Assembly: GCA_016282315.1 (NCBI GenBank)
Contig: JAEEKG010000075.1
Coordinates: forward strand, 5,354 to 69,353
Source: Clostridiales bacterium
GTDB lineage: Bacteria; Bacillota; Clostridia; Oscillospirales; CAG-272
Length of the DNA: 64,000 bases
Direction: 5' to 3'
In this document: one piece after another, positions 8,301 through 39,732 of the stretch
How positions within the stretch are numbered: position 1 is the first letter of the stretch
Layout: the number at the start of each line of letters is the position of its first letter
Notes under the pieces: model-generated
Told to the model about the DNA's origin: nothing
Database searches by the model: none
Seen by the model: the letters and a program-made list of their open reading frames with translations, nothing else
Made by a program: the position numbers and the translations under genes

Positions 8301-8352
8301 CATCCGCTTCAACTCTTTGAATCGGTGGTCTCTTTTTGGTTCGTTTACCCAT
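5347..8352 (-). CDS. cation-translocating P-type ATPase (P2-like) with an extended C-terminal membrane region
   Basis: TGES (LTGESDHV), phosphorylation site DKTGTLT and hinge TGDGVNDILAL are all present. At 1001 aa it has about four hydrophobic segments beyond the usual ten. Confidence 0.9.
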   Translation of the reverse strand: MGKRTKKRPPIQRVEADVKTGLNSQQVKERVDNGYVNVVTDKNDKTFLQILAGNTFTFFNAILLSIALVFIAFMIYLKAIGHDEIVNQYFGFSKFIFLIPAIMNVTMGTFQEVKSAKVIKKLRIVTETKGKVIRNGEVVQLDAKDIVIDDIVLLSAGDQASTDMVVLEGEVFVDESMLTGESDHVKKNAGDTILSGSSIIVGSAKCRATEIGNDTYAAKLTQKVKGQSSHKSELMTSIIKILRFLTVALFFVVVTVIITLVVKISQTGNNPDIWNNLTLTPNDPVTWALIAVTSGSFGIGMIPSGLVLTTSVALVVSIAQLTKKKTLIQELYSLENLSRVDVICLDKTGTLTDGTMNVVDVKAFAPMEEIQKYAQNIVLAAGDRNSTMEAVYQRFGIASEPAYVEDIPFSSANKYSGVILADGKKVLMGAPEYLIDKEDPRLEFSTECAKKGQRVVAITVDGELKAFIAIEDHIRDTAPDTLKFFRENGVEVKVISGDNPLTVSKIAENCGIKHADRYISLAGVSLDEIPEIADEYTVFARVSPEQKEALVRALQAKGHKVAMTGDGVNDILALRKADSSITFAKATDAAKACSDVVLLDNDFSHLKDVVGEGRRVIGNIQRTAVLYLMKSIAVFILGFALIPLEKGQLWFSVENMYMLEAAVIGTGGFLISLESQRNPIRGSFMKMIVLQALAAGILAAVAILTPIMLNVIPKMLSVAPFISDANVKPMMTVMMTMAGIVVIFAKCIPFNKYRIATLIALVFVASTLGFMFPSAYIGGHTIGSDMLAYDAAAGQSIFDSRLFHEMFQPWNSPYVQGVVGDYNNFVVLRIFLYIAIPVFILVMFALENFVRKDYGKDVHLHRAFRIGRRMMLTAGIVLVLRALLCGFELFFQNKSILNIPGVLGTIINIVCLISLLVIGYFGYKLWKDPTKTNIRIAAGMGIGLVVLSVLEIVISGGVLTETLVLYRFDQTIIWIITALYLVGSIIVRANYKLGLLKPRDK

Positions 8353-9238
8353 TATTGTTTTTCTCCTCTCTATTATCTATCTGATTCTTTTTGTTTTGAG
8401 CTATCAAAAAGAACAATGGAATTATGTTAATGAATGTAAGCCATATCGGTCCCAAAGCCAAACTGCCTATAAAATCGAGTGGCAAAAACATTTTTGCACT
8501 GTTAATCATAAAATTAGGATCTATCATCTGATAAATCATCAGAACTGCTATCAAGACTATGCTAAGTGTTACAGATATTTTTTGGAATAATGCAAATCTG
8601 TCACATTTGAATCTCACATATGAGGCAATAGTGCTTATAAACGGAGCAATCATCAAAAGTGCAATCAGCAAATAGCCAAATGCGTATTCTGTTTTAAGAA
8701 CAGCGATTGACTGGAGTCCTGTCAAAAACGACAATGACGAATAGAACATCAGAATTGCAAATACTCTTGTCACAAATGCCATGAATCTGAAAGATTTGGA
8801 GTATTTTTTCTTTTCCGTGTTCCCTATTTTTTTCAGGTTCATAATGTTTTTTACGTCCACTATAACATATATAGCAAACATAACAAACATGTCGATTGGG
8901 AAAACCAAGTTAAAGCCGTGATATTTCAAATTTGTGAAATACAAAGGCAGATTAATAGCAACAAATACAGCAGCAATGACTTTTAGACAAATAACTATGA
9001 TTTCAAAAACCAAGTATCCTTTTTTGCTTACAGGATTGATGTATTTGTTTTTAACAAAAGTAAAGAAATATGCAGGAGCCAGTGCAAACAATATAATTGG
9101 TCCTATCCATTGCATGATGTTGTTGGCGTAATAGCCGATTACGATCATCAAAGTATTAACAAGTAGGTAAGTCGGGTAAGTAGTTAATAAGCAATACAAA
9201 ACGTCTTGCAAGAAAATTGATTTATTCTTCTCACTCAT
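8345..9238 (-). CDS. polytopic membrane protein, function unknown
   Basis: ORF 8345-9265 trimmed to the ATG at 9238, which is preceded by GGAGG (gggaggtaattgagATG). It has multiple hydrophobic helices and its end overlaps the ATPase start by 8 nt. Confidence 0.6.
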   Translation of the reverse strand: MSEKNKSIFLQDVLYCLLTTYPTYLLVNTLMIVIGYYANNIMQWIGPIILFALAPAYFFTFVKNKYINPVSKKGYLVFEIIVICLKVIAAVFVAINLPLYFTNLKYHGFNLVFPIDMFVMFAIYVIVDVKNIMNLKKIGNTEKKKYSKSFRFMAFVTRVFAILMFYSSLSFLTGLQSIAVLKTEYAFGYLLIALLMIAPFISTIASYVRFKCDRFALFQKISVTLSIVLIAVLMIYQMIDPNFMINSAKMFLPLDFIGSLALGPIWLTFINIIPLFFLIAQNKKNQIDNREEKNNNG

Positions 9239-9239
9239 C

Positions 9240-10232
9240 TCAATTACCTCCCACAACTTTGCCATAATCTACATAAACGCTGCTTATGTTGTCCAAGCCG
9301 AATTCTTCACTTGTGAGCGTAATAAGACAATAACCCAGTATATCATCATCGTGATAAATCTCTCTTGTGGATTTTACCCCATAACCGAGAATGACGCCTT
9401 CATAATCAACAACTGCGTTATTAATATGGTCGTGACCGCAGAATGTACCTCTTATGCCTGCATTTTTGAGTCTTTCAAATTGATCTGACTCGAACACTGA
9501 AGGACAAGATGGTTCTCTGTTTGTGCCCTTTCCCTCATATTTGCCTTCCTGATATCCTTCATAAGCATCTTTATACTCCTTAAGAGGTATGTGGAAGAAA
9601 GCAAGTGAAGTATAATCGTCGTCATCTTCCTCAGCTTGTATTTTTTCTATGTGAGCCAATTGAGAATCGGAAATCTGATTGTAAGTGTATTGGATGGGAT
9701 TCAATCTCAGATATGAACCGCCGTCAATCATAAACAATCTGTATACCAAATCGTCGCCTTTCATCAAATCAACATGGAAATTCTGAGTTCCGTCTATTCC
9801 ATCATTTGGATAGTCAACATTCAATGAATACTCCATTTTTGACACTACTTCATCTGGATATGTATATTCATATACTCCTTGATGATCGTGATTGCCCTGA
9901 ATAAACACCCAATTAATCTTGAAACTGTCAATAAAACTGAAATAGAAATCTACTTCAGCTTTTGTAGCTTCAAAGAAATTATCTCCGTTGAGTACAATTA
10001 AATCAGGCTTAGCTTCATTGATATTGTGTGTAAGATATTTTGTCAATTCGTCAAGGTTAGTCAACATACTGATGTGAACATCTGTCAGCATCATTATTTT
10101 GAAGCCCTCTTTGTATTCCATGTTCTGTCTATACTCATCAATGTCGTGCTTTTCCACTTTTTTGGCACAACCCGCCGCGAATATCATTATCGCAGACAGC
10201 AAAATGAGTAATACGATTTTTGCTTTTTTCAT
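9240..10232 (-). CDS. calcineurin-like metallophosphoesterase, probable lipoprotein
   Basis: Metallophosphoesterase motifs DVH, GDNF, GNHDHQG and GHDHINN. Signal peptide with lipobox AAGC. Start moved to MKKAKIV (ATG at 10232, RBS AAAGGA), which removes the overlap with polA. Confidence 0.8.
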   Translation of the reverse strand: MKKAKIVLLILLSAIMIFAAGCAKKVEKHDIDEYRQNMEYKEGFKIMMLTDVHISMLTNLDELTKYLTHNINEAKPDLIVLNGDNFFEATKAEVDFYFSFIDSFKINWVFIQGNHDHQGVYEYTYPDEVVSKMEYSLNVDYPNDGIDGTQNFHVDLMKGDDLVYRLFMIDGGSYLRLNPIQYTYNQISDSQLAHIEKIQAEEDDDDYTSLAFFHIPLKEYKDAYEGYQEGKYEGKGTNREPSCPSVFESDQFERLKNAGIRGTFCGHDHINNAVVDYEGVILGYGVKSTREIYHDDDILGYCLITLTSEEFGLDNISSVYVDYGKVVGGN

Positions 10233-10242
10233 TCTGTTCCTT

Positions 10243-12756
10243 TCAATGAGCTTCAAACCAATTCTGGCCGCTTCCAATTTCCGTTGTCAGCGGAACGCTC
10301 AGTTTGACTGCATTTTCCATGCAATCTTTTAATATTTTCTTTGCTTGCTCAGCGCAATTCTTGTGTGATTCAATGATTAATTCGTCATGAACCTGCATTA
10401 TTAAGTGAGCATCTATATTACTCTTTTTTAATTCTTCATAAACATTGACCATCGCAATTTTTATTATGTCAGCTGCTGTTCCCTGAATCGGACTGTTTTT
10501 TGCAACTCTCTCTCCAAATGCAATTTCCATCTTTTTTGGAGAAGACAATTCCGGGATATATCTTCTTCTTCCGAGCATTGTTGTGACATATTTGTTCATG
10601 CGTGCGTCAGAAATAACTTTGTCAAAGTAGTCAGCCACTTTGGGATATGTTCTCATGTAATTCTTGATATAGTCATCAGCCATATATACAGGAATCTGTA
10701 AATCCTGAGATAGCGAATAACTTCCCATACCATACATTATTCCGAAATTGATTGCTTTGGCATGTTTTCTCTGTTCAATTGTAACTTCATCCTTTTCAAC
10801 ACCGAATAACTTCATGGCAGTTGAAGCATGAATGTCGCCTCCGCTGTTGAATACTTCAGTTAAATTCTCATCTCCGGAAATTGCCGCAAGCAGTCGGAGT
10901 TCAATCTGTGAGTAATCTGCATCAATTAGAACATAATCATCGTTTTTTGAGACAAAAAACTTTCTGAAGTTTCTTCCCAATTCTGTTCTTATTGGGATAT
11001 TCTGCAGGTTAGGCTCAGTTGAAGACAATCGTCCTGTTGATGTAAGGGCTTGCTTGAAGTTTGTGTGAACCCTTCCGTTTTCATCAGCACAAAGAGGCAA
11101 GGCATCTGCATATGTACTCTTGAACTTGGAATACTCCCTGAACTGAAGCACATATCCAACAATCGGATTGATGGGTCTCAGTTTTTCCAAAACATCGGCG
11201 CTGGTTGAAATCTTTGTTTTATTCGGATTCGGGAGTCCCATCTCTTCAAACAAAACACTGCCCAGCTGCTTTGGAGAATTGACATTGAACGGGTGGCCCG
11301 ACAAGTGGAATATCTTATCTTGGATTTCGTTCATCATTGACTGCAGTTGTGAAGAAAACTCATACAGTTTTTTTACATCAACCTTGAATCCTCTCTGCTC
11401 CATGTCATACAGGACGAAAGCCAATGGCAACTCTACTTTTTTGTAAAGGTCATATTGATTTGTTTCGACTAATTCATTTTTGAAATAATCGTGAAGTTTG
11501 TATATGTAATAAGATTTTTCATCAGGTGATTGAGCTGTTGCTCCGAAGGTTCTTGAAACAAGTTTTTCGATTGAAAAATCCGTTTCTCCGCTAGAGCACA
11601 TGTAACCCATAAGCATCACATCATCACAGCATCCGTTCAAGTTGATTTTGGATGAAGATAAAGTGTGACATTCACTTTTTAAATCGTGAACTATGAGCCT
11701 TTTTTCACCTTCAAGTATCTCTTTTTGTTCTTCTATTCTTTCGCATTCATATATTTTCTGCCCATCAGAATAATAAATGCAGTTCGAGTCGTAATCTATG
11801 TATGCAGACAATTGGCCTGATGGAATGCTCGAATAACTGATCTTTTCGGTTTTGGGCAAGTTGAATGTCTTTTCTAAGTATTCATTGTTCTGCTTTTCAA
11901 GATCAAATTTTGCAATCAGTGCTTTAAATCCAAGTCTTGAAAAGATTTCGGCAAGTGCCTGCTTGTCAGTTCCTTTATATGCAATCTTATCAAGCGAAGG
12001 AACATCCGGAACCCCTTTGTCTATTCTTGCTAACCTCTTAGACAGGAATGCATTGTCTTTTCCGGCCAATAACTTTGTTTTATTTGTTTCCGTTATGTCT
12101 TTTGCTTCATCAATTTTTTCATATAACTGCTCTATACTATCGTATGTCGCAATCAGTTTTCCAGCTGTCTTTTCGCCTATTCCCGCAACCCCGGGGATGT
12201 TGTCTGAAGAGTCGCCCATCAGTGCTTTCATGTCAACAAAGTGATCGGGATAAATACCGTATTTATTGAAGAACACTTCTCTGTCATATTTTACCGACTC
12301 TCCCGTGGTTGCCAAAAGAACAAACGTGTTATCTGTTATAAGCTGTAAAGAGTCTCTGTCTCCCGTAACTATATATGCTTGCACCCCATTGTCTTCAGCA
12401 ATGGCTGAATATGTACCCAAGAGGTCATCTGCTTCATATCCGCTTTTTTCAACGCAAACTGCTCCAAGAGCAGTCAGACATTCCTTGACTGGAGCAAACT
12501 GAGCAAGAAGTTCGGGAGGAGTTGATTTTCTTCCGGCTTTGTAATCGGAATAGAATTTGTGTCTGAATGTCGGAGCATGCACATCAAAAGCAACGACAAA
12601 ATAGTCTGGCTGTATTTCTTCCAGATGCTTGTGCATTATATTCATGAATCCATATACGGCGTTTGTCGGAGTCCCATCCGGAGCGCTCAACGGCCTGATG
12701 CCATAAAACGCTCTGTTGATTATTGAGTTTCCGTCAACAGCTAGCAATTTTTTCAT
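10243..12756 (-). CDS. polA: DNA polymerase I
   Basis: 837 aa. It has an N-terminal 5'-nuclease domain and family-A polymerase motifs A (DYSQIELR), B (RKHAKAINFGIMYG) and C (QVHDELI). Confidence 0.95.
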   Translation of the reverse strand: MKKLLAVDGNSIINRAFYGIRPLSAPDGTPTNAVYGFMNIMHKHLEEIQPDYFVVAFDVHAPTFRHKFYSDYKAGRKSTPPELLAQFAPVKECLTALGAVCVEKSGYEADDLLGTYSAIAEDNGVQAYIVTGDRDSLQLITDNTFVLLATTGESVKYDREVFFNKYGIYPDHFVDMKALMGDSSDNIPGVAGIGEKTAGKLIATYDSIEQLYEKIDEAKDITETNKTKLLAGKDNAFLSKRLARIDKGVPDVPSLDKIAYKGTDKQALAEIFSRLGFKALIAKFDLEKQNNEYLEKTFNLPKTEKISYSSIPSGQLSAYIDYDSNCIYYSDGQKIYECERIEEQKEILEGEKRLIVHDLKSECHTLSSSKINLNGCCDDVMLMGYMCSSGETDFSIEKLVSRTFGATAQSPDEKSYYIYKLHDYFKNELVETNQYDLYKKVELPLAFVLYDMEQRGFKVDVKKLYEFSSQLQSMMNEIQDKIFHLSGHPFNVNSPKQLGSVLFEEMGLPNPNKTKISTSADVLEKLRPINPIVGYVLQFREYSKFKSTYADALPLCADENGRVHTNFKQALTSTGRLSSTEPNLQNIPIRTELGRNFRKFFVSKNDDYVLIDADYSQIELRLLAAISGDENLTEVFNSGGDIHASTAMKLFGVEKDEVTIEQRKHAKAINFGIMYGMGSYSLSQDLQIPVYMADDYIKNYMRTYPKVADYFDKVISDARMNKYVTTMLGRRRYIPELSSPKKMEIAFGERVAKNSPIQGTAADIIKIAMVNVYEELKKSNIDAHLIMQVHDELIIESHKNCAEQAKKILKDCMENAVKLSVPLTTEIGSGQNWFEAH

Positions 12757-12775
12757 AAAAACTCCAGTCTATCTA

Positions 12776-13276
12776 TTAGTAGTAAATGTGAATTCCACCT
12801 TGATCAAGATAGTCGATAAAGTATTCCAAAGCTTTGAAATATACAGGTATCAATACTGCTAAAAAGAAAGATAAAACAGATAATGAAACTCCGGAAATAC
12901 CCAAAATAAGAGTTGCAATTGGTTTTTTACCGTTGTTTCTTCTTGCCTCTTTGAATTTGCCTATAGATATGAATCCGAAAACCATAGACAAAATTCCGAT
13001 AATTATGAATATGGCAAGTCCTACATAGAATCCTACCTTGGAAATAGGTACCCAATAGAAAACCATCATTGTTGACAAAATAATTAAGTCGACAACAGAT
13101 AGTATGACAGATGCAAGCCCAAGACCGAACCCGTACATTCTGGTATATTTGCTTTCCTTGTTTTCTACTGTCGATTTTTGCTGATTATCGTTGTCGGTAT
13201 TTGTTAATTGTTTTGCGCAATCTTCGCATATTGCTTCCGGATTATCTGTTGGTTTTCCGCAATACTTACAATACAT
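12776..13276 (-). CDS. zinc-ribbon domain membrane protein
   Basis: Start set at the ATG preceded by AAGGAG. N-terminus is MYCKYCGKPT...CEDC (CxxC...CxxC), followed by about four hydrophobic helices. Confidence 0.6.
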   Translation of the reverse strand: MYCKYCGKPTDNPEAICEDCAKQLTNTDNDNQQKSTVENKESKYTRMYGFGLGLASVILSVVDLIILSTMMVFYWVPISKVGFYVGLAIFIIIGILSMVFGFISIGKFKEARRNNGKKPIATLILGISGVSLSVLSFFLAVLIPVYFKALEYFIDYLDQGGIHIYY

Positions 13277-13301
13277 TTTTTTCTCCTTCAAATGTAACTA
13301 G

Positions 13302-13718
13302 TTATACTTTTCCTTCCAAATCTTTTAAAACTTTTGCTCTCACATCCTCAACCTGATCGCATTTTTTAACTCCGAATACACATTCGTTGACAAAATGCTC
13401 ACAGTTGTTATACAAAATGTTATAACCGCCTGTGCCGATTCTGCTCCTTGCATAATCTACTATAGCATCGGTTTTTTTCGCTTTAAGCTTTTCAGTAAAA
13501 GACATGGATCCTACTTCAAGAAATCCCCCGCCCAAAAAGACATCGATGTTTGTTGTCAACACCACAACATCTGTTGCAGTCATCATTTTGATGTTTCTTG
13601 GCGGCATCCCGAACTGTATTACTTCATCATCCGAAACATATATTCCATAGTGATAGATATCTCCTATGGCAACTCTTATAATGTCTCCCTTTTTGGGAGT
13701 TTGCATGGTCCATTTCAT
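13302..13718 (-). CDS. LRAT/PLAAT (H-box/NC, NlpC-P60 superfamily) thiol acyltransferase/phospholipase-like protein
   Basis: 138 aa with the His box YHYGIYV and the catalytic-Cys box NNCEHFVNE. ATGA overlap with the upstream carrier-protein gene. Confidence 0.7.
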   Translation of the reverse strand: MKWTMQTPKKGDIIRVAIGDIYHYGIYVSDDEVIQFGMPPRNIKMMTATDVVVLTTNIDVFLGGGFLEVGSMSFTEKLKAKKTDAIVDYARSRIGTGGYNILYNNCEHFVNECVFGVKKCDQVEDVRAKVLKDLEGKV

Positions 13719-13969
13719 TTGTCAATCTCTTTTGAAATATAATCGATTACATCTTTAACTGTTTGAAAATCTTCAAAATTGACATTTTCGAACTTTATTT
13801 TAAATGTTTCTTCGATTGCAATGATGATATATAGCATTCCTACAGATGACAAGCTCAGGTCTGTATAAAGATTTGATTCTTCTGTGAGATTGGAAAGTAA
13901 TTCTTCGGGATTGCTTACAGTGTATTTCAATATTGTTTTTAATTTTTCAACAATTTCGTCTCTTGTCAT
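13715..13969 (-). CDS. stand-alone acyl/peptidyl carrier protein
   Basis: 84 aa, acidic, with the phosphopantetheine-site-like motif DLSLSSVGMLYII. It starts 1 nt after the stop of the ligase gene. Confidence 0.75.
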   Translation of the reverse strand: MTRDEIVEKLKTILKYTVSNPEELLSNLTEESNLYTDLSLSSVGMLYIIIAIEETFKIKFENVNFEDFQTVKDVIDYISKEIDK

Positions 13970-13970
13970 A

Positions 13971-15461
13971 TTATTGCTTCCTCAATATCTTCATACTTGG
14001 ACTTCTGTTAAAATCTTTATCTCTGATTATTATCTTGCTTATTCTCTTGAAAGGCGGCAATGTCTTATTGACCTTGTTTATCTCTTCTTTAATGAAAGCT
14101 TCTTTATCTACACCGGAATATTTAGCAAGTTCAGTTGCTCTTGGATAGACTTGAAGAGCGAGATATTGTTTTCCATCCTCTTCTTCAGCATACACAAGTG
14201 AATCCTGAATTATGGCAATTTTATCAAATTCATTTTCTATTTCGGCGGGAGAAACATTCTCTCCGGTTGACAAAACAATAACTTCTTTGCATCTTCCGAC
14301 AATGTATAAGAATCCGTCTTCATCGATTCTTACTAAGTCTCCTGTTTTGAACCATCCGTCTTCAAATGCCTTCTTGTTCTCTTCAGGGTCTCCTAAATAG
14401 CAGGTAAACATGTTGTCACCTTTGAGCCACAATTCTCCGTTTACGATTTTCAATTGCTGACCATCATAAGGATAACCGACGGAATCAGGCTTAGATTCAA
14501 CTTCAGGGTTGCCGCTGACTAAGTTAGCGCTCTCGGTAAGACCATAACCCGGCAAAAGTGTGATTCCTATCTTCTTATATTCCTTAACGAGGTAAGGAGG
14601 AACCATAGCGGCTCCGCAAATAATATACTTGAGTGAATCGCCAAGCATATTCTTATTAAACTGTTTTGAAATATTCAGTGCCATCTCGGCAAGAGCCGGA
14701 ACCATTACAAGCATTGTAGGTCTGAACATAGCTATATCTTTGAACATGTCTTTATTGTTTCTGCAGATGTATAAGTTACTGCCTGTGTAAAGACTTGTCA
14801 AAAGGTTTCTTATAAGTCCGAAAACATGAGTCAAAGGCAATACAAGCAAATATCTTTCTTCAAATACGGCATTTACTCCATAACAGCCGTTCTTTGTACC
14901 TCTCATCATTGCTCTGTTGTTAAGCAAAGCACCTTTGCTGTTTCCTGTAGTTCCACCTGTGAAAAGTACTGAACAAGGATCGTCACCGCTCACATCCTGA
15001 GCCGGTGTTTTTTTATCAGATTGCTTGTCTGTAGAGATCACGACAACACTGGGTTTCTTTTCTTTGACAAAAGACAGTTTTGCTTCCATAACAGGGTTAT
15101 ACACAATGAAATTGAAATCAAACTTCATTGAACAACCGAAAACAGTCATTTCGTCCAGATGCGGAGGCAGCAATATAGCTACAGCACCCAATGTTGTAAT
15201 AGCCAAATATGCTTTGACAAAATCATAAGAGTTAGGTGAAAGAAGAGCTACTCTGTCGCCTTTTTTAACTCCACTGTCAGTCAGAACAGTTCTGAATTGA
15301 GATACGTCTTCTTCAATTTTTGTAAATGAATACTCTTTTCCGTCATCAGTTATTGCAATATTATTCGGGTATGTTTTAACACTGTGATTCCACATCTGCG
15401 AAACAGATTCGTAATCTACTATCTTGTTGTATGTCTCTTTATCCGTGTACTTTTCGAACAT
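13971..15461 (-). CDS. AMP-dependent synthetase/ligase, long-chain acyl-CoA or acyl-ACP synthetase-like
   Basis: Canonical adenylation motifs FTGGTTGNSKGA, GYGLTES, GWFKTGDL, GRCKEVIVLSTGENVSP and a terminal Lys (SMKILRK). Start placed at the ATG at 15461, preceded by AGGTGA; the track ORF starts at GTG 15470. Confidence 0.85.
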   Translation of the reverse strand: MFEKYTDKETYNKIVDYESVSQMWNHSVKTYPNNIAITDDGKEYSFTKIEEDVSQFRTVLTDSGVKKGDRVALLSPNSYDFVKAYLAITTLGAVAILLPPHLDEMTVFGCSMKFDFNFIVYNPVMEAKLSFVKEKKPSVVVISTDKQSDKKTPAQDVSGDDPCSVLFTGGTTGNSKGALLNNRAMMRGTKNGCYGVNAVFEERYLLVLPLTHVFGLIRNLLTSLYTGSNLYICRNNKDMFKDIAMFRPTMLVMVPALAEMALNISKQFNKNMLGDSLKYIICGAAMVPPYLVKEYKKIGITLLPGYGLTESANLVSGNPEVESKPDSVGYPYDGQQLKIVNGELWLKGDNMFTCYLGDPEENKKAFEDGWFKTGDLVRIDEDGFLYIVGRCKEVIVLSTGENVSPAEIENEFDKIAIIQDSLVYAEEEDGKQYLALQVYPRATELAKYSGVDKEAFIKEEINKVNKTLPPFKRISKIIIRDKDFNRSPSMKILRKQ

Positions 15462-15470
15462 GAAAATCAC

Positions 15471-16133
15471 CTACTTTGCAAGTTTAATTAGTTCTATCTC
15501 TTTCTCTCTTATACCGGTGGATATTCTCTCAACTTCGCTGAGTGGTATATTGCCGCTCTCTGAGTCAAGTACTATTGGCTCGCCTACCACTATTCTCTGA
15601 CGATTATACCAATGAAGAGGTTTTTTGATATAAACAGGAACAACAGGAGCATCATTCTTAAGTGCCATAATAACCGCGCCTGCTTTAAATGAGCTTATTT
15701 GTCCCTGTTCATTATTCTTCAACCCGCCCTCTGGGAATATCCCTACAACGGCGCCTTCATTCAATCTGTCACTAACGTCTCTGTAAGTCTGAATATTCAG
15801 ATGTTCTCTGTTGACAGGTATGCACAAAACTTTGTGGAAAAACCAATTTTTGAATTTAGTGTCAAACAATTGGGATGTCGCCACAAGGTGTATTCTTCTA
15901 TACCAAAATGAAAAGTGAATTTTAATCGGATCCAAAACGCTTTCATGATTTGCAACCAATACAGCCGGTCCTCTTAATACTTTCCTTGCCTGTTTGTTTT
16001 CATAAATGACCTTTGGTCTTAGAACCAAAAAAGCTGACAATGCACCTGTCCACTTTACAAAATCATAAATAAAGTATTTGAAGCGGAACTTCTTATACTT
16101 TTTCTTTTTTTGTTGTTTGTCTTGATAATTCAT
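15471..16133 (-). CDS. PlsC-family (lysophospholipid/1-acylglycerol-3-phosphate) acyltransferase, copy 2
   Basis: HX4D block NHESVLD, plus the FPEGG and VVPVY blocks. 220 aa. Confidence 0.8.
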   Translation of the reverse strand: MNYQDKQQKKKKYKKFRFKYFIYDFVKWTGALSAFLVLRPKVIYENKQARKVLRGPAVLVANHESVLDPIKIHFSFWYRRIHLVATSQLFDTKFKNWFFHKVLCIPVNREHLNIQTYRDVSDRLNEGAVVGIFPEGGLKNNEQGQISSFKAGAVIMALKNDAPVVPVYIKKPLHWYNRQRIVVGEPIVLDSESGNIPLSEVERISTGIREKEIELIKLAK

Positions 16134-16740
16134 CTTTTAAATCAATTACCTTTTTTCGTATTGTTTTTGTTATTTGTTCAATATTTGTTTTTTCATCGAG
16201 ACTGTCATCCCACAATTCCTGTACGTCAATCGGACAGCCAATGATTACACGAGCTCTTTTTTTGTTAAAATAGCTTCCGTTTGTGTAAAGAGGAATGATT
16301 TTTGCTCCGCTCTCAAGGGCGATATATGTTGCACTGGTTTTAAACTCCAATGGCTTTTCTTCACCCTCTTTGGGTATTCTTCCTTCAGGGAAAATCCCCA
16401 CGATTCCCTTTTTGTTCAAAATTTCCACAGATTTTTTGACAAATAGGAAATCGTAAGAATTTCTATCTACAAAGATTCCGCCTAGTCTTCGCAAAAACCA
16501 TTTTAACAATTTGGTTTTGAACAGTATCTCTGCCATCTGATATCTCAATGTTCTGAAAAAGAACACAAACAGAAATACCGCATAGTCATAAACAGAAGTG
16601 TGATTCGAGACGATTATTGCCTGTCCCTTAATTCTTCTGCTCTGTATTTTTTTGTCTTCATAATACACTTTTGTTCTGAAACAAACCCACTGCACTGGAA
16701 GCGCAGTAATTTTTACAAAAGCGTTGAATAGTTTTATCAT
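16093..16740 (-). CDS. PlsC-family (lysophospholipid/1-acylglycerol-3-phosphate) acyltransferase, copy 1
   Basis: HX4D block NHTSVYD, plus the GGIFVDR, FPEGR and IIPLY blocks. 215 aa. Confidence 0.8.
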   Translation of the reverse strand: MIKLFNAFVKITALPVQWVCFRTKVYYEDKKIQSRRIKGQAIIVSNHTSVYDYAVFLFVFFFRTLRYQMAEILFKTKLLKWFLRRLGGIFVDRNSYDFLFVKKSVEILNKKGIVGIFPEGRIPKEGEEKPLEFKTSATYIALESGAKIIPLYTNGSYFNKKRARVIIGCPIDVQELWDDSLDEKTNIEQITKTIRKKVIDLKDELSRQTTKKEKV

Positions 16741-18620
16741 TGAGCGCTGTTAAGCTTTTTGTTTACCCTGCTCTGAAGTACAGCAAGAGAAACAATGTTG
16801 CAAGGCAATATAGGCAAAACAAGTCCTGTTATTACAGACAGTACAACATATTTTGCACTGAGTTTTCCTTCAACTGCTTTGAATTGACTTATCAGTACGA
16901 ATATTCCTGCAAAAGGAATGATACAGCCGAGTATCCAATAAAGAAGTGTTCTCTTCTTTTCTGTGAGTTTATCTATTGATTTGAACAGGAATGCAGTCCA
17001 GATGAACCCGAAAATGAATCCTGACAGAATTGAAAGCGCAACTTGAACGAATACTATTTCGCCCTTGTCTTTCTTTGTTTCAGGTTCATCGGTAATCTGA
17101 CTGATGTCAAGGCTTTCGTCATATTTTTTCAATTCTTTTGCAACGCATTCAGGAGTATATTCCTTAGGCATCTTGAAAGCGAATATAAAGCCTACAATGC
17201 ACATGATTGCAACTATGAAAGGAACAATCATAACGCCGAAGTTGAAGAGTTCGCCTGTACCTACATTAAGGTTCTGGCCTGCTACTTCGATTGCACTTGC
17301 TGTCTCTGTTGCTTTTGCCCATGTGAATGAGAAGCTCTTTGTTACGAATATGTTCTTTAGAATGTCATAAACACCATAAGAAGCTATAGCGCCTACGATA
17401 CTTGTTGTGAATGCCTGTGCTGCAAAATACATTGCGCTGTGATTCTTGTTTGTAAGTTTTTCTTCAACTGAAGAAATCTGGGCAGGAATCATATACGGCA
17501 TCATGAAGAAAGCACCGATTGACCAGCTTCCCATAACTCCGCCTACACAACCGATGATATACTGAATCATCTTGTTGTTTGTTCCGCAAACATATGTTGA
17601 AGCAAAGAAGAATGAAAGGATTGCCAAAGCAAATGTCAACAGACAAGTCTGGTAAGTAAATCTAATACCTTTCTTTTCCTTAACTTTTCTGAATAAGTAA
17701 AGCATGATCGGGACAGGAGCAAAAGCACATGTGTTGACCAAAGCCATTTCTGCGCCGTTAAATCCCATTCCTCCCAGAATCATAGCATTCATGGCTACGA
17801 GGAACATCTGGAGTCCGAAGAAAGAACAGCAGTTTACTACGAGCCAGTTTCTGAAAATTTTATTCTTGAATGTGATCTTGAATGATTCTGTTAATTTAAT
17901 CTTTTCTTGTGTCTTTTGTCCATTGTTCTCAGGATAGCCATACTTTTCACCCTCTTTGATCAAGAACAGAGGGATGAGCATTGTACCCATCAACGGGAGT
18001 GACATAAACACGAATTTATCTATTCCCATTCCTGTGCCGTTGTATATGCCTTGGATTATAAGCGGAACAAGTGCATAAACCAAGCAATAGGAAATTGTGT
18101 CGAAGAATGATTTGAATGAAGAAACTCTCAATCTTTGTGATTCATCTTCACATACATTGCTCAAACTGCCGTAGAAAGCAATCAAGCACATTGTGTATGA
18201 TGCAAAGAATATAAGTGCCCAGAAGAAGAACCATATTGAGTTTGCGAGTTGTACTGATGAATCAGTTCCGAAAATAGGCCACCAACAGAAAGCAAAAGAA
18301 ACAACCATCGGTATAAAGCAAATAGCGATAGGTGGTCTTCTTCTACCCCATTTTGTTGACAGGTTATCTGTAATTGCAGCGAATGGAATATCTATTACGC
18401 CGTCAAATACTTTACCAAGTATCATCAAAACTGAAAACAATGCCGGAACTACAAGACAAATGTTGCCGACAATTGTCTGTCCGTTGACATTTCCGCTTAA
18501 ACCGGCCGGGTTCACAGCATCACTGTAGTATGCTCCCATAAGAACCATCAAAAAGTTTGGTCCGAAACCTGAAGCTGCAAATAACAACTCTTTCCATTTT
18601 TTGTCTAGTGATTTTACCAT
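16737..18620 (-). CDS. MFS transporter of the GPH/MFS_2 type with a C-terminal extra membrane module
   Basis: 627 aa. The N-terminus (FAASGFGPNFLMVLMGAYYSDAVNP) resembles the GPH-family signature. After about 12 TM segments there is a charged linker (KEYTPECVAKELKKYDESLDISQITDEPETKKDKGE) and three to four more hydrophobic helices. Confidence 0.75.
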   Translation of the reverse strand: MVKSLDKKWKELLFAASGFGPNFLMVLMGAYYSDAVNPAGLSGNVNGQTIVGNICLVVPALFSVLMILGKVFDGVIDIPFAAITDNLSTKWGRRRPPIAICFIPMVVSFAFCWWPIFGTDSSVQLANSIWFFFWALIFFASYTMCLIAFYGSLSNVCEDESQRLRVSSFKSFFDTISYCLVYALVPLIIQGIYNGTGMGIDKFVFMSLPLMGTMLIPLFLIKEGEKYGYPENNGQKTQEKIKLTESFKITFKNKIFRNWLVVNCCSFFGLQMFLVAMNAMILGGMGFNGAEMALVNTCAFAPVPIMLYLFRKVKEKKGIRFTYQTCLLTFALAILSFFFASTYVCGTNNKMIQYIIGCVGGVMGSWSIGAFFMMPYMIPAQISSVEEKLTNKNHSAMYFAAQAFTTSIVGAIASYGVYDILKNIFVTKSFSFTWAKATETASAIEVAGQNLNVGTGELFNFGVMIVPFIVAIMCIVGFIFAFKMPKEYTPECVAKELKKYDESLDISQITDEPETKKDKGEIVFVQVALSILSGFIFGFIWTAFLFKSIDKLTEKKRTLLYWILGCIIPFAGIFVLISQFKAVEGKLSAKYVVLSVITGLVLPILPCNIVSLAVLQSRVNKKLNSAQ

Positions 18621-18633
18621 TTTTTACCTCTTT

Positions 18634-20565
18634 TTATTTTATATGCTCACGCACATACTTAACCATATCATTAACCGTTGAAATACTTGTTTGCAAAGTT
18701 GAAGGAAACGGTACTTCAAACTCTGTCTGGATATTCGTAATCATTGTGAAGTAATCAAGACTGGTTCCTCCCAAGTCGAAGAAGAAATGTCCGTCATTTC
18801 TAATATCTTCAACCGGTTTACCGATTGCCTTGGCAAACAATTGTTTGATTCTCAATGTCAATTCATCGTCCTCAGTGTTATCAGAAACAAAACTGGATCT
18901 GCTGACAATTGTCAATTGATCGTTCTTCAGCATTTCTTTAATCTTGTTTCTGTTTATCTTAAAGTCATTTACGCCCATCAAATATGATGATGTGAAAACA
19001 ACTTTGTTAATCATTGAACTCATGTTCAAATCGCTTATTCTTTCGTTCAATGTTTTTTCGATTATTTCGAATTGCTGAGAGTCGATGTATTTATTAATCT
19101 CACAAATAAGCACTACACTGTTTTGATTACTTACAAGGCATATTCTCTTCAAACCATCGAACATCAATTTGGGTTCAATAATATTCGGGTTGATGTTCTC
19201 GCCGTTTGAACAAATAATCAAATCGTCTTTTCGACCATTGATGTAATACTTGTTGTTCTTGAGTTCGAACAAATCGTGAGTGTTGAACCACTCTCCTTTT
19301 GACTCTGTCGGTTGTCCATCCGAATAAACTTTATCCGCAATAGATTTGCCTTTTACCAACAGTTCACTTCCGTCGTTTATCTTATACTCAAGCGAACTGA
19401 ATGGTTTTCCCACAGAGCACTTGTTTCTTTCATTCGGAATATCTGTCAGTTCTACAGATGTAATTCCCAACTCAGTCATTCCGTAACCATTGGTGAGGTG
19501 ATAACCGATTCCATTGATGAATCTCATTACATCGTAGGAAACATATCCTCCGCCGTTTATCAAAAATGATATGCTCTCTCCGAACATTCCATCCCTGATT
19601 CTTTTAAATGCAATCTTTGAAAAGATGTGATGCAAAACTTTTGAGTTTCCCAATGAATCGGAAATCTTCATTCCGCGCAAAAACTTCTTATATGTTTTTT
19701 CACCCTGATCCTGGATGGTACGGATTGCAGTATCATAAATCTTTTCCCAAAAAATCGGCACTGCGAATATATGGGTTACGTTGTGCTTTCTTATGGTGTT
19801 GACTATTGTCTTTGGTGAATAGTCCTTTAAGAACACAAGCGTTCTTGAAAAGAAACAGAACCATATATACATTGCCACAAAGCCGAATATATGGTAAAGC
19901 GGTAAAAAGGCGAGTAATTTTAATTCACCCTTGTAGTGTTTTTTAACACTCTTGCTTGTTTTTATAACTTCACTGCTGTCTTTTATCTGGTAGTAAAACT
20001 TTTCTCCCGAGTAAGAACAAATCTTTAAGTGAGAAGATGTATTTGAAGACATCAAAAAAACTTCATCCTGAAATACTTCCTGTTTAACCTGATCTTTTTT
20101 GTCGCAGTTGTAAATGTCTTCTACATGAATGTTCTGTACTTTGTAATTCTTGTTTCTTGAGATAACTGCACCCACGCCGTATTGGCTGTAAACATCTTCC
20201 AATGTTTCATCATCAATTCGTGTATTAACAAGAAGAGGTTTATATCCGGATTTCAATATTGCCCAGAACAACTCCAGCCATTCACGACAATTTTCCAAAT
20301 ATAAACCGACTATAGTGCCAACAGGTTTTTCCTTAAGCATTGCTGATAGTGAACCGGCTAAACCTTCTATGCATTCTTCGCTCTGACCATATGTCACTTT
20401 TTTTACTCTGTAGCCATCGGTGCTTTCACAAAAAACGTTATTCTTTTCAGAAAACATCAGCCCGTACAAAGATCGCATACTCTTGTCCGTCTGAGCAAGA
20501 CAAGACAATTTGTGATTCACAAATTCATCAATGCTTTTAAAACCAGCGATATTGTTATATCTCAT
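18634..20565 (-). CDS. adenylate-forming enzyme fused to a C-terminal carrier (thiolation) domain
   Basis: 643 aa. Motifs NGYGMTELG, GEWFNTHDL and GRKDDLIICSNGENINP are present, but the P-loop is degenerate (MSSNTSSHLK). The C-terminal carrier motif is FFFDLGGTSLDYF. Confidence 0.8.
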   Translation of the reverse strand: MRYNNIAGFKSIDEFVNHKLSCLAQTDKSMRSLYGLMFSEKNNVFCESTDGYRVKKVTYGQSEECIEGLAGSLSAMLKEKPVGTIVGLYLENCREWLELFWAILKSGYKPLLVNTRIDDETLEDVYSQYGVGAVISRNKNYKVQNIHVEDIYNCDKKDQVKQEVFQDEVFLMSSNTSSHLKICSYSGEKFYYQIKDSSEVIKTSKSVKKHYKGELKLLAFLPLYHIFGFVAMYIWFCFFSRTLVFLKDYSPKTIVNTIRKHNVTHIFAVPIFWEKIYDTAIRTIQDQGEKTYKKFLRGMKISDSLGNSKVLHHIFSKIAFKRIRDGMFGESISFLINGGGYVSYDVMRFINGIGYHLTNGYGMTELGITSVELTDIPNERNKCSVGKPFSSLEYKINDGSELLVKGKSIADKVYSDGQPTESKGEWFNTHDLFELKNNKYYINGRKDDLIICSNGENINPNIIEPKLMFDGLKRICLVSNQNSVVLICEINKYIDSQQFEIIEKTLNERISDLNMSSMINKVVFTSSYLMGVNDFKINRNKIKEMLKNDQLTIVSRSSFVSDNTEDDELTLRIKQLFAKAIGKPVEDIRNDGHFFFDLGGTSLDYFTMITNIQTEFEVPFPSTLQTSISTVNDMVKYVREHIK

Positions 20566-20619
20566 TTCATTAACCTAACAAGAATAATATTTTTTTACAA
20601 AAGATAAAAATACTTTAAT

Positions 20620-20648
20620 AGTATATATCATAATTATAATTAATTCAA
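20620..20648 (-). promoter_or_regulatory. candidate promoter of the lipid-acylation operon
   Basis: On the minus strand: TTGAAT, 17 nt, TATACT. The -10 hexamer ends 55 nt upstream of the ATG at 20565. Confidence 0.3.
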
Positions 20649-20742
20649 CCTATTAAATGCCACAAATAGACAAATGTTGTTCAGTCATTTTCCATCGAAT
20701 GTAGGTATTCATTCTGCAATAGGTTTTTACAGCATTTGTTTC

Positions 20743-20771
20743 TTGACATGACAAAAACCAATTGATATAAT
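20743..20771 (+). promoter_or_regulatory. consensus sigma-A promoter for tRNA-Thr
   Basis: TTGACA (20743-20748), 17-nt spacer, TGa-TATAAT (20766-20771). The tRNA starts 14 nt downstream. Confidence 0.7.
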
Positions 20772-20784
20772 TTACTTTGCGCTT

Positions 20785-20860
<76 letters not shown>

Positions 20861-20870
20861 TAAAGTAGTT

Positions 20871-20896
20871 GCTTTGGTGCAGTTTTGTGCCAAAGC
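20871..20896 (+). terminator. possible weak terminator or processing hairpin after tRNA-Thr
   Basis: GCTTTGGTGCA-gttt-TGTGCCAAAGC (includes two G-U pairs), followed by the T-rich tract atattatttatctt. Confidence 0.35.
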
Positions 20897-20934
20897 ATAT
20901 TATTTATCTTAAATATTTTAAAAGGAGCAAACCC

Positions 20935-22833
20935 ATGGAAAAAGTAAGAATTCAGGACGACTTATACACATTCGTAAATCAAGAATGGCTAGATAAGGCA
21001 ACAATACCAGATGATTTGCCTATGACAGGCGGCTTCGCTTCATTGGATGAAAGTGTAAGAGACACTTTAATCCGCGATTTGAATGAAATGTGTGAAAAAG
21101 GCAATTACAGCAATAAATACATGGAAAATGCCTGCAGACTGTACTCAAAATACAAAGATACAAAAAGACGCAACAGAGAAAAAATGCGTCCTGTACAGAA
21201 GTATTTAAGCAAAATCGAAAAATTAAAAGATTGTTCAAGTTTAAACAGAAATCTGAAAGAGCTTGTTCTTAACAGCTATCCTCTTCCATTCAAAGTAGAA
21301 GTCATGGAGGACATGAGTGACACAAGCAAGCGCTGCGTTGCCGTTTTCCCTCCCAGAACCATACTCCCGGATTCTTCGTATTACAAACCGGAGAATGCAC
21401 AACAAAAGGAAATGATGATTGGTCTCTGGACAAATATGGCACATATGATCCTGGCCGAATCAAAGCTCAGCCCTGAAAACCAGGAATTGTACATTTCAGA
21501 TGCATTGAAAATTGATGCTGCAATCGGTTCGCTCGTTAAAACAAGCGAAGAACTCAGCGAATACACAAAAATGTACAATCCAATGAGTACAAGAACTGTA
21601 TCGGGATTGTTAAAACCAATTAAATTCAGACAACTTTGTTCTTCATTATTCGATTCAGTTCCGGAAGTAATAATTGTAACTGACCCGAGATATTTCAAAT
21701 CTTTTAAAACCGTTTTCAATGCTGAAACTTTTGAGCAATTCAAGCACTGGGCATATGTCAGAAAATTGATTGATTCCACTTCTTTCTTGAGTGAACATTT
21801 AAATGAATTGGGAAGTATGTTCATGATGGCATTGACAGGTGTTCAAAAAGTTCCTTCTGCAGAAAAGCGCGCATATGAATATGTTTCAGCTACGTTTGCT
21901 AATCCAATAGGAAATTATTACGGAGAAAAGTATTTTGGTGAAAAGGCAAAAGAAGACGCAACTGAAATAGTGAAAGAGATCATTGAACAATACAAAGAAA
22001 GAATACAAAAAAATAACATTTTGACAGAACAGACAAAAAAACAGGCAATAGTCAAACTGTCAAAGATGGCAATAAAAATCGGTTATGCAGATTACATTGA
22101 TCCAGTGTACGACAAGGGAGTGATCGACGAATCTGACTCTTTGTTAGATACAGCTATTATGATAGAAAGAATCGAAAAAGAGTATGAATACTCCAAACTC
22201 CACAAACCGGTTGACAGGGGCGAGTGGATTATGCACGGACACGTTGTAAACGCAGGTTATAATCCAATGTTCAATGACATCTCATTTCCAGCTGCTATTC
22301 TTCAACCTCCTTTCTATTCAATTAACCAGACAAGAAGTGAGAATTTGGGCGGTATCGGAGCAGTTATAGGACACGAAATTTCACATGCGTTCGACAACAA
22401 CGGAGCAAAATTTGATGAAACCGGAAGCCTTAACAATTGGTGGACAAAAGAAGACTTAAAGAAATTCAATGCAAGTACAAAAGCTATGATCAAAGAATTT
22501 GAAGGAATTGAACTTCCTTGGGGAAAAGTCAACAGCAAATTGATTGTAAGTGAAAACATTGCAGACAATGGCGGGATGGCCGTTACCATTGACATCATGA
22601 ACAAATCTAAAGGCGCATCTTTTGAAGAGTATTTCAAAAACTGGGCACGAGTATGGTGTCTGAAAGCAAAACCGGAATACTTGCAATTGCTCTTGACAAT
22701 AGATGTTCATGCACCGGCAATTTTGAGAGCGAATATGCCGCCCAGAAACTTTGAAGAATGGTATAACACATTCAACGTTACAAAGAAAGATAAAATGTAT
22801 ATAGCTCCAAACAAACGCGTGGTTATTTGGTGA
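20935..22833 (+). CDS. pepO: M13 family (neprilysin/PepO-like) zinc endopeptidase
   Basis: HExxH (GHEISHAF) and ENIADNGG motifs. Start moved to the ATG at 20935 (MEKVRIQDDLY), which is preceded by AAAGGAG. Confidence 0.9.
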   Translation: MEKVRIQDDLYTFVNQEWLDKATIPDDLPMTGGFASLDESVRDTLIRDLNEMCEKGNYSNKYMENACRLYSKYKDTKRRNREKMRPVQKYLSKIEKLKDCSSLNRNLKELVLNSYPLPFKVEVMEDMSDTSKRCVAVFPPRTILPDSSYYKPENAQQKEMMIGLWTNMAHMILAESKLSPENQELYISDALKIDAAIGSLVKTSEELSEYTKMYNPMSTRTVSGLLKPIKFRQLCSSLFDSVPEVIIVTDPRYFKSFKTVFNAETFEQFKHWAYVRKLIDSTSFLSEHLNELGSMFMMALTGVQKVPSAEKRAYEYVSATFANPIGNYYGEKYFGEKAKEDATEIVKEIIEQYKERIQKNNILTEQTKKQAIVKLSKMAIKIGYADYIDPVYDKGVIDESDSLLDTAIMIERIEKEYEYSKLHKPVDRGEWIMHGHVVNAGYNPMFNDISFPAAILQPPFYSINQTRSENLGGIGAVIGHEISHAFDNNGAKFDETGSLNNWWTKEDLKKFNASTKAMIKEFEGIELPWGKVNSKLIVSENIADNGGMAVTIDIMNKSKGASFEEYFKNWARVWCLKAKPEYLQLLLTIDVHAPAILRANMPPRNFEEWYNTFNVTKKDKMYIAPNKRVVIW

Positions 22834-22881: not shown

Positions 22882-23460
22882 TTAATATTTCAAATGCTTT
22901 CTAACCCCATCAAAGAACAAATTGCTGATTATCATGGCCAATTTTTCGACAGGTTCTCTTCTTCCGTTATATAGCCATTTATTGTATACTTGAAACATAC
23001 CTGATATAGAATATTCCACAACAACATTGTTTTCATATTCTGTATAATCACATCTCTGTCTCTTAAGAACATCTTTGAGTTTATCTTTTAAGTATGAGAT
23101 TATTTTTTCCGAGAGGTTGGTTTTCAAATCTGAATTCATCACTTTTTTAAAATAATCAAAGTCTTCATCCAATAGTTTTGTTAACCTTATCAAAACATTG
23201 TAAGGACCTTCTAATTCACTTTTTGTGTCAAGGCCTTTGATTGCAGTCTTGAATCTTTCGAACAATTCATCTTCTATTTCATTTATTATTTCATGAATTC
23301 CCGAATAATTGTTGTAAAATGTTTTCCTGTTGACGTCTGCCAGTTTTGCAATATCAGTTATAGTGATATCATTAACATTTTTTTGAGCCAGTAAATCAAT
23401 GAATGCGCTCTTTATAGCTTTTTTTGTTTTTAAGATTCTTCTATCAATTTTCTTTTCCAT
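22882..23460 (-). CDS. TetR/AcrR family transcriptional regulator
   Basis: 192 aa. N-terminal HTH (ITITDIAKLADVNRKTFYNNYSG). Divergent from the degV gene. Confidence 0.85.
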   Translation of the reverse strand: MEKKIDRRILKTKKAIKSAFIDLLAQKNVNDITITDIAKLADVNRKTFYNNYSGIHEIINEIEDELFERFKTAIKGLDTKSELEGPYNVLIRLTKLLDEDFDYFKKVMNSDLKTNLSEKIISYLKDKLKDVLKRQRCDYTEYENNVVVEYSISGMFQVYNKWLYNGRREPVEKLAMIISNLFFDGVRKHLKY

Positions 23461-39456: not shown

Positions 39457-39462
39457 TTCCGC

Positions 39463-39712: not shown

Positions 39713-39732
39713 ACATGCGAAAGGAAATCAAA

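Follow-up and report, generated by a model that had tools for sequence, protein, structure and literature searches.

A conserved cluster of carrier-coupled ligases, PlsC-type acyltransferases and an LRAT/PLAAT-type enzyme in rumen and gut Clostridia, with a possible role in assimilating exogenous fatty acids

We analysed a 64,000-nucleotide (nt) window of Clostridiales bacterium DNA (GenBank assembly GCA_016282315.1, contig JAEEKG010000075.1, positions 5,354 to 69,353, forward strand), which carries on its minus strand seven adjacent genes for two adenylate-forming (ANL) ligases, two carrier domains, two PlsC-type acyltransferases, a permease and an LRAT/PLAAT-type thiol enzyme. These seven genes are a functional unit, because they are co-conserved across relatives and not because they are closely spaced. 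Judged from the protein sequences and their genomic context, it is moderately probable that the operon incorporates carboxylic acids of external origin, with long-chain fatty acids as the likeliest, into the glycerolipids of the membrane in a carrier-dependent manner and along two parallel lines. All its parts come from known enzyme families and its logic has precedents; new are the architecture, its breadth in anaerobic Firmicutes and the coupling of the LRAT-type enzyme to carrier proteins and phosphopantetheinyl transferases (PPTases). The seven genes, in positions of the window and with the names used below, are as follows.

18634-20565, minus strand: ligCP, ANL ligase with C-terminal carrier domain, 643 amino acids (aa); Pfam AMP-binding and PP-binding
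16737-18620, minus strand: MFS, MFS_2/GPH-type permease of the major facilitator superfamily, 627 aa; Pfam MFS_2
16093-16740, minus strand: PlsC_a, acyltransferase, 215 aa; Pfam PF01553
15471-16133, minus strand: PlsC_b, acyltransferase, 220 aa; Pfam PF01553
13971-15470, minus strand: lig2, FadD-like ligase, 499 aa; Pfam AMP-binding and AMP-binding_C_3
13715-13969, minus strand: CP, stand-alone carrier protein, 84 aa; Pfam PP-binding
13302-13718, minus strand: LRAT, LRAT/PLAAT-type thiol enzyme, 138 aa; Pfam LRAT PF04970

A preliminary description of this DNA had listed these seven minus-strand open reading frames (ORFs), and all are present at their coordinates and on that strand. Recomputed spacing from ligCP to LRAT (+13, -4, -41, 0, +1 and -4 nt) confirmed the range it gave for the junctions, from a 41-nt overlap to a 13-nt gap. 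Its domain calls hold for all seven proteins, each of which scored above its Pfam gathering threshold, and the motifs it quoted (FFDLGGTSLDY, NHTSVYD, NHESVLD, FPEGR/FPEGG, DLSLSSV, YHYGIY and NCEHF) are all found in the translations and are invariant or nearly so across 62-81 orthologues. As it had also stated, Pfam detected no ketosynthase, condensation (C), thioesterase or reductase domain in any of the seven proteins, which rules out a polyketide synthase or non-ribosomal peptide synthetase line.

Co-conservation in related genomes, named beforehand as the test of the proposed module, proved to be strong. Relatives of ligCP were found in at least 551 species-representative genomes (one genome scanned per species), including complete genomes of cultured Ruminococcus strains; relatives of the same architecture showed 43-62% identity and are named only generically. 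All of the 80 loci retrieved (numbered below with the prefix L) belong to rumen or gut Clostridia (Ruminococcus, Lachnospiraceae, Butyrivibrio, Oscillospiraceae and Christensenellaceae). They were annotated by phmmer with the window proteins and seeds from two relatives as queries, and presence was counted over those 60 loci in which 9.5 kb or more of sequence follows ligCP. PlsC_a accompanies ligCP in every one of these (60/60), LRAT and CP are each present in 56, PlsC_b in 51, lig2 in 46 and MFS in 30, while alpha/beta-hydrolases (abh), DegV and FakA each occur in 53. The order of the genes is fixed: ligCP-PlsC_a-PlsC_b-lig2-CP-LRAT-abh-DegV-(MFS)-FakA-abh-(159-aa unknown)-(abh). Six of the window's seven genes are thus order-conserved and make up the core, with MFS as an optional member. 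Neighbourhoods seeded separately from MFS and from LRAT homologues recovered the same cluster, those seeded from LRAT without exception. This conservation rules out a chance adjacency of the genes. No close homologue was found in a characterised pathway, either through NCBIfam or in the full-text literature, and the literature search found no published characterisation of this cluster.

Two types of cluster can be told apart. In the majority (type A), a fatty-acid-kinase/hydrolase module is appended, and MFS, where there is one, is a short protein of 440-500 aa. Type B, to which the window belongs, has a long MFS of 615-690 aa directly 3' of ligCP and no Fak or hydrolase genes inside the cluster; its other members are L004, L039 (Butyrivibrio), L061, L079, L084, L086 and L087. 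The exact seven-gene arrangement of the window is found in L087, and L084 displays a minimal form, ligCP-MFS-PlsC-PlsC-PPTase. Six Lachnospiraceae loci lack lig2 and PlsC_b and keep CP-LRAT. A 159-aa protein without a Pfam family recurs at the end of type A clusters, between the last two alpha/beta-hydrolases (20/60 loci; L003 20042-20521).

Both ligases combine the core motifs of the acyl/aryl class of ANL enzymes with an A4 motif of the acyl/aryl type P-x-x-H (LPLYH and LPLTH), not FDxS, and these A4 motifs lack the Asp that binds an alpha-amino group. The amino-acid adenylation model TIGR01733 gave 34 bits against a cut-off of 317. In ligCP (Pfam AMP-binding 112.8 bits, PP-binding 42.7 bits) the A3 motif is degenerate (SSxTSxHxK181) and is followed by YGMTE, D431, GRxDD and the A10 lysine K536; the phosphopantetheine attachment serine is S602. 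Residues K181, H225, D431, K536 and S602 are invariant in 81 orthologues. The AlphaFold2 (AF2) model of ligCP (mean predicted local distance difference test, pLDDT, 81.6) is that of a normal adenylation-peptidyl carrier protein (A-PCP) didomain. The lig2 protein (AMP-binding 204 bits, AMP-binding_C_3 34 bits) shows canonical A3, A5, A7, A8 and A10 motifs (TGGTTGNSKG, YGLTE, TGD, GRxKE and K494) that are conserved in its orthologues. Its top NCBIfam match is long-chain-fatty-acid--CoA ligase (NF004837), with 240 bits against a cut-off of 476, a model on which ligCP reaches 83 bits. From context rather than homology we infer that both ligases use fatty acids; lig2 presumably loads the adjacent stand-alone CP.

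The HX4D block and motifs II-IV place both PlsC proteins in the LPLAT superfamily. PlsC_a (PF01553, 81.3 bits) contains, besides IIPLY, the motifs NHTSVYD (NH47x4D52), GGIFVDR93 and FPEGR (PE119xR121), which are invariant in 79 sequences, and its sole sequence match in the PDB is the Thermotoga maritima PlsC (5kym, E 1e-9). PlsC_b (92.4 bits) contains NHESVLD (NH63x4D68), CIPVNR, FPEGG and VVPVY, with H63 and D68 invariant in 69 orthologues. Scores of 68-77 bits on the lysophosphatidic acid acyltransferase (LPAAT) model TIGR00530, below its cut-off of 103, put the two proteins outside the LPAAT equivalog; they also match the NCBIfam Aas models weakly (21-72 bits, cut-offs 886-1349). The start of PlsC_b overlaps PlsC_a by 41 nt, an overlap kept in L003, L084 and L087, and in L089 (8482-9765) both paralogues form a single fused protein of 427 aa, a Rosetta-stone arrangement. 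Overlap and fusion imply that the two PlsC enzymes act together. Moreover, lig2 and PlsC_b are gained or lost together: 45 loci have both, 1 and 6 have only one of them and 8 have neither (Fisher p 9.5e-6, not corrected for phylogeny).

The stand-alone CP (PP-binding 29 bits; acyl carrier protein (ACP) models up to 49 bits, below cut-off) has its attachment serine, S42, in DLSLS-S42-V, and this residue is invariant in 68/68 sequences. LRAT and CP share 4 nt in L087-L089 as they do in the window, where the LRAT start lies in the overlap. LRAT matches PF04970 with 73.6 bits (cut-off 24.3) and human PLAAT3 (4fa0) with E 2e-9. It shares the permuted papain-like fold of the family with the mammalian PLAAT/HRASLS and LRAT enzymes, and His23 (of the H-box) and Cys106 (in NCEHF) align with their catalytic residues. 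The chemistry is expected to pass through an acyl-Cys thioester. Residues H23, C106, E107 and H108 are invariant in 69/69 sequences. The mammalian PLAAT1-4 and LRAT have a C-terminal hydrophobic membrane anchor. The bacterial LRAT differs in that its C-terminus (...VRAKVLKDLEGKV) forms no hydrophobic tail, which makes it a soluble protein without a transmembrane anchor. It differs also at the position of PLAAT3 His35, where it has Gln35 (orthologues: Gln in 56/69, Ala in 10/69), and therefore lacks the third residue of the Cys-His-His triad described for the LRAT/PLAAT family (PMC10318531).

A further difference from the mammalian enzymes lies in the genetic tie between the bacterial LRAT and a carrier protein. 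LRAT is fused to a C-terminal Sfp-type PPTase in 44 of 71 loci, as Pfam ACPS matches and the motifs VG(V/I)DIE and WxxKE confirm. An exhaustive search of 1.84 billion representatives detected 341 LRAT relatives at E <= 1e-10, and the PPTase domain was present in 112 of the 150 best of them. LRAT is absent from L084, where the stand-alone CP is absent too. Since LRAT tracks the stand-alone CP and is fused to a PPTase in most relatives, its role is probably carrier-directed and not that of a membrane phospholipase; LRAT is wired to the carrier protein, which implies an acyl-carrier partner rather than phospholipids only. The preliminary description had implicitly made LRAT the deacylation half of a Lands cycle, an assignment given without evidence and at odds with this linkage. 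As far as the sequence tells, the LRAT reaction may be a hydrolysis that edits wrong acyl groups, the acylation of a lipid or an amine with acyl-CP as the donor, or the loading of CP from a lipid. Two other proteins, P0366 (1125 aa) and P0510 (637 aa), contain 11 and 5 tandem LRAT/PLAAT-like domains, respectively, and their sequence looks closer to the eukaryotic PLAAT type.

The permease matches Pfam MFS_2 with 115.9 bits over residues 54-421 and consists of a 12-helix transmembrane core with about four additional C-terminal helices (about 521-626). This extension matched nothing in Pfam and bears no relation to the 171-aa protein encoded downstream of the cluster. D73xxxD77 is invariant and corresponds to what we take to be the cation site of the MFS_2 family. 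Homologues in the related clusters (59-80% identity) usually lie directly 3' of ligCP. The best fold match of the AF2 model (pLDDT 79) is MFSD2A (E 3-5e-10, TM-score 0.70-0.72), and the sole NCBIfam match is gph (38 bits, cut-off 231). A lysolipid, a glycerophosphodiester or a fatty acid are candidate cargoes.

Most clusters of the relatives include FakA, DegV/FakB and alpha/beta-hydrolases, and some include PlsX, a patatin (as in L001) or a PPTase. Such accessory genes suggest that fatty acids are scavenged and glycerolipids acylated. Each of the 60 loci has lig2 or FakA (39 with both, 7 with lig2 only, 14 with FakA only and 0 with neither), and a plsX-fakA-degV-degV array adjoins the cluster in L088 and L089, both without lig2. 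This distribution, in which the numbers are small, is compatible with a loading of the stand-alone carrier by either lig2 or FakAB/PlsX. Neighbours of type B clusters include genes for a TMEM164-like protein (PF14808), an MprF-like LPG_synthase_C protein and a GDSL lipase (L086 1136-1891 and 14276-15175; L087 774-1409).

In the pathway we propose, the first line, which is always present, would start with the adenylation of the acid by ligCP and its thioesterification onto Ser602 of the enzyme's own fused carrier; PlsC_a would then esterify an acceptor with the ligCP-tethered acyl group at the inner face of the membrane. In the second line the FadD-like lig2 would load Ser42 of the stand-alone CP, and PlsC_b would consume the acyl-CP. 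PlsC_a and PlsC_b would work on the same backbone and acylate either the two positions of a glycerophospho compound or lysolipids, these with two classes of chain. The MFS_2 permease, coupled to Na+ or H+, would import either the acceptor or the acid. LRAT would act on the stand-alone CP, exchanging its acyl thioester between the phosphopantetheine arm and Cys106, and would then either hydrolyse the acyl group for editing or release, or donate it to an acceptor lipid. What the permease carries, which carrier serves which acyltransferase, the glycerolipid nature of the acceptor and the reaction of LRAT are points that we infer. Of the private-carrier lipid module put forward in the preliminary description, the 2:2:2 logic of ligases, carriers and acyltransferases, the distinction from a polyketide or non-ribosomal peptide line and the link to exogenous fatty acids or lipids are retained here. 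The deacylation half of its Lands cycle is not, and its lysolipid cargo counts only as possible.

Several observations weigh against assimilation of fatty acids into glycerolipids. The nearest folds of ligCP in Foldseek (the A-PCP didomain of carboxylic acid reductase (CAR), MenE, FadD13 and AasS) share only 13-19% identity with it, and the best PDB matches of lig2 (E ~1e-37) are oxalate-, feruloyl- and FadD13-type ligases, a set of mixed specificity; a substrate other than a fatty acid is therefore possible for the ligases. The AF2 and Foldseek analysis of ligCP and the profile-versus-PDB search yielded only generic ANL enzymes and no substrate call. All seven proteins stay below the NCBIfam equivalog cut-offs. 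There are also PlsC-type enzymes, those of the OlsA and GlsA types, whose products are aminolipids or other esters outside the glycerolipids. The permease, called lysolipid-type in the preliminary description, had no match in a sequence search of the PDB, and its model fits the sugar transporter MelB (E 1.4e-9, TM-score 0.69-0.77) practically as well as MFSD2A, so that the label is at best tentative; MFS is, besides, absent from half of the related clusters (30/60). Finally, the window has a reduced version of the cluster, no FakA, alpha/beta-hydrolase or PPTase gene was found within its 64 kb, and the lipid context is for this reason taken from the relatives.

Among the other explanations, a real possibility, if an unlikely one, is that LRAT is a pure proofreading enzyme of the type-II thioesterase kind, stripping acetyl, butyryl or other unwanted acyl groups from carriers that the Sfp-type PPTase has wrongly primed with acyl-CoA; it would transfer no acyl group and deacylate no lipid, with the remaining operon working as above. 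It overlaps the hydrolysis branch of the pathway proposed here, and its probability is not independent of that of the pathway. The frequent LRAT-PPTase fusion would make sense as a prime-and-repair enzyme pair, LRAT is soluble and has no membrane anchor, and papain-like enzymes that take acyl groups from an ACP are known, e.g. BtrH (PMC10318531). An editor should, however, serve both carriers, and LRAT is missing in L084 though the fused ligCP carrier and a PPTase remain; most clusters also already contain alpha/beta-hydrolases able to edit.

It is rather unlikely that the operon makes a specialised lipid instead of salvaging membrane lipids. The product would be N-acyl-phosphatidylethanolamine (N-acyl-PE), a triacylated lipid of the acyl-phosphatidylglycerol (acyl-PG) type, an acyloxyacyl aminolipid or a fatty-acid amide (FAA), with LRAT as a PLAAT-like N- or O-acyltransferase in place of the C domain of FAA clusters and the PlsC pair adding further acyl groups. 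PLAATs make N-acyl-PE, and LRAT, whose Cys/His site is intact, is a full homologue of them; in work of the 1970s, a rumen Butyrivibrio reportedly turned PE into N-acyl-PE by transacylation. The system has three potential acyl-transfer enzymes, and in the six Lachnospiraceae loci that keep CP-LRAT without lig2 and PlsC_b, LRAT could consume the acyl-CP. Gut Clostridia also offer a precedent of a ligase and a private ACP that make signalling lipids (PMC13310621). Against a specialised product stand the linkage to the housekeeping-type activation genes FakA, FakB and PlsX, the core-genome location with ordinary GC content, the presence in at least 551 species, the absence of tailoring enzymes and of a dedicated exporter, and the fact that LRAT is dispensable in some variants (L084).

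Quite unlikely, in our estimate, is a role in which LRAT shuttles acyl groups in either direction between membrane lipids and CP (ester, Cys106 thioester, phosphopantetheine thioester), or makes triacylated lipids of the N-acyl-PE type. With such a shuttle, LRAT and the PlsC pair would constitute a carrier-based cycle of lipid-to-lipid transacylation that uses no CoA and, at that step, no ATP; LRAT would be the first PLAAT from a bacterium whose role is defined, and hundreds of species of rumen and gut Clostridia would possess a new route for loading or unloading a carrier.

A carrier-dependent modification of a non-lipid or envelope polymer by DltABCD/AlmEFG logic, in which the ligases would activate small or amino acids and the PlsC-type enzymes would attach them to a glycolipid, a lipoteichoic acid anchor, a polysaccharide or a protein, has in its favour the AlmEFG architecture of ligase, carrier and LPLAT-superfamily transferase, the mixed specificities of the structures nearest to both ligases and a GT2 gene adjoining the cluster in L089, yet it is highly improbable, since the acyl-type A4 motifs and the low TIGR01733 score argue against aminoacylation by a DltA/AlmE-type ligase, the top matches are of the MenE and FadD types, Pfam detected no MBOAT or DltB/DltD-like partner in the operon, and the cluster is strongly linked to FakA, FakB and PlsX.

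The assimilation pathway favoured here can be compared with several known systems. The preliminary description had named LplT-Aas and the FAA clusters of Clostridia as the nearest precedents, neither having this architecture, and our comparison agrees. LplT-Aas, the lysophospholipid transport and re-acylation system of E. coli and other Gram-negatives, is known from Gram-negatives only; its Aas generates acyl-ACP in situ, spends it immediately on the acylation of a lysolipid and is in contact with its partner, an MFS flippase (PMC11416262). The likeness lies in an MFS gene, a PlsC-type acyltransferase and an acyl-carrier-protein synthetase in one operon. Aas, however, is an acyltransferase fused to the synthetase, whereas here the synthetase is fused to a carrier and the acyltransferases are separate single-domain genes; LplT-Aas borrows the housekeeping holo-ACP, whereas the operon has two private carriers (the fused T domain and the 84-aa CP) and doubles the whole unit, with two ligases, two carriers and two acyltransferases. 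The permease is of the MFS_2/GPH type, not the LplT type, and is optional, and LRAT (often PPTase-fused) and, in relatives, usually FakA, FakB and hydrolases are added. On our best reading, the operon may be regarded as a Gram-positive functional analogue of LplT-Aas that lies outside that family.

In the FAA clusters of gut Clostridia (OaaA/OaaACP/OaaC; the family of Chang et al.), a free-standing adenylating enzyme loads a fatty acid from diet or host onto a private ACP and the condensation domain OaaC forms the amide (PMC13310621). The loading follows the same logic as lig2 and CP. The FAA clusters have a stand-alone C domain, whereas none is found in the seven proteins or the flanking ORFs, and the consumers of the acyl-carrier here are PlsC-type O-acyltransferases and a LRAT-type thiol enzyme. 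The FakA/FakB-PlsX-PlsY/PlsC pathway of Firmicutes likewise activates exogenous fatty acids for phospholipid synthesis; it does so through acyl-phosphate and the housekeeping ACP, while the cluster adds ATP/AMP-type ligases, private carriers and dedicated PlsC paralogues, and the window operon contains no Fak genes. AasS of Vibrio harveyi, a soluble acyl-ACP synthetase, is also an ANL ligase that loads fatty acids onto ACP, and its structures 8hsy and 8jyl are among the fold matches of ligCP. AasS shares only ~13-14% identity with ligCP, has no carrier fusion, uses the housekeeping ACP and does not lie in a cluster with acyltransferase genes.

The surroundings of the operon in the window include the following features.

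12776-13291, minus strand: protein with an N-terminal Zn ribbon and several transmembrane helices, 171 aa; possible accessory member (weak evidence)
20566-20784, minus strand: 5' intergenic leader, bounded by tRNA-Thr; probable promoter region of the operon
20785-20860, plus strand: tRNA-Thr(GGT), between the operon and an M13 peptidase gene
22882-23460, minus strand: TetR gene, divergent from DegV; Pfam TetR_C_8 40.9 bits
23399-24472, plus strand: DegV, FakB-like fatty-acid-binding protein; Pfam DegV 182.9 bits

The close packing continues 3' of LRAT, where 10 nt separate LRAT from the gene of the 171-aa Zn-ribbon protein and another 19 nt separate that gene from polA; beyond polA, overlapping genes on the same strand encode a metallophosphoesterase, a 306-aa protein without a Pfam match and a P-type ATPase. 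Throughout this minus-strand array (5347-13291) the gaps range from -35 to +19 nt, and long co-directional arrays appear typical of this genome. Since close packing is a general trait of the region, the 3' boundary of the operon is soft and the junctions alone are weak evidence for it; no terminator-like site was found on the minus strand at the LRAT-to-polA junctions (part scanned: 12500-21000). Homologues of the 171-aa protein lie directly after LRAT in L004 and L079 and at the cluster end in L062. The flanks of L089 encode Zn-ribbon membrane proteins of like architecture with no significant sequence similarity to it. We did not adopt the protein as a conserved eighth gene, as the L089 resemblance is architectural only, and keep it as a possible member.

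At the 5' side, the best sigma-70-like matches in the operon leader, at 20656-20620, reach only 9/12 positions, no better than in shuffled sequence. The tRNA-Thr gene is preceded by a perfect sigma-70-like promoter (TTGACA-17-TATAAT with TG, 20743-20771) and followed by a terminator-like hairpin (20870-20897). The TTG start listed for the M13 peptidase ORF, at 20869, overlaps this hairpin and is probably over-extended. A mobile island or horizontal acquisition was rejected, given the unremarkable GC content and a neighbourhood of core genes (polA, tsf, rpsB, tRNA). The TetR/DegV pair, described earlier as lying 2.3 kb upstream, is real; it is not conserved beside clusters of the window's type and recurs beside the cluster only in L074. 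The window DegV is only distantly related to the DegV proteins encoded within the relatives' clusters (68.6 bits); it lies outside the operon and is possibly related to it in function. A GH116-family glycosidase gene (beta-glucosidase 2/glucosylceramidase-like; 27074-29581, minus strand) is situated ~6.5 kb upstream of the cluster. Farther away, and unrelated to the operon, a T-box leader (39461-39688, plus strand; Rfam RF00230, 134 bits) precedes a 437-aa ORF (39649-40962).

Rumen and gut Clostridia meet abundant dietary and host lipids, and the uptake and re-use of these is poorly known beyond the FakAB/PlsX system of pathogens. If our reading is correct, the cluster would be a second, dedicated lipid-uptake route, in at least 551 species-level genomes, and the first LplT-Aas-like system outside Gram-negatives. 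The bacterial homologues of LRAT/PLAAT gain with it their first genomic context, coupled to and fused with carrier-protein machinery, and the role of bacterial PLAAT-type enzymes becomes addressable by simple assays. The cluster may also bear on resistance to toxic unsaturated fatty acids, on the bypass of inhibitors of fatty-acid synthesis and on the production of host-active lipids.

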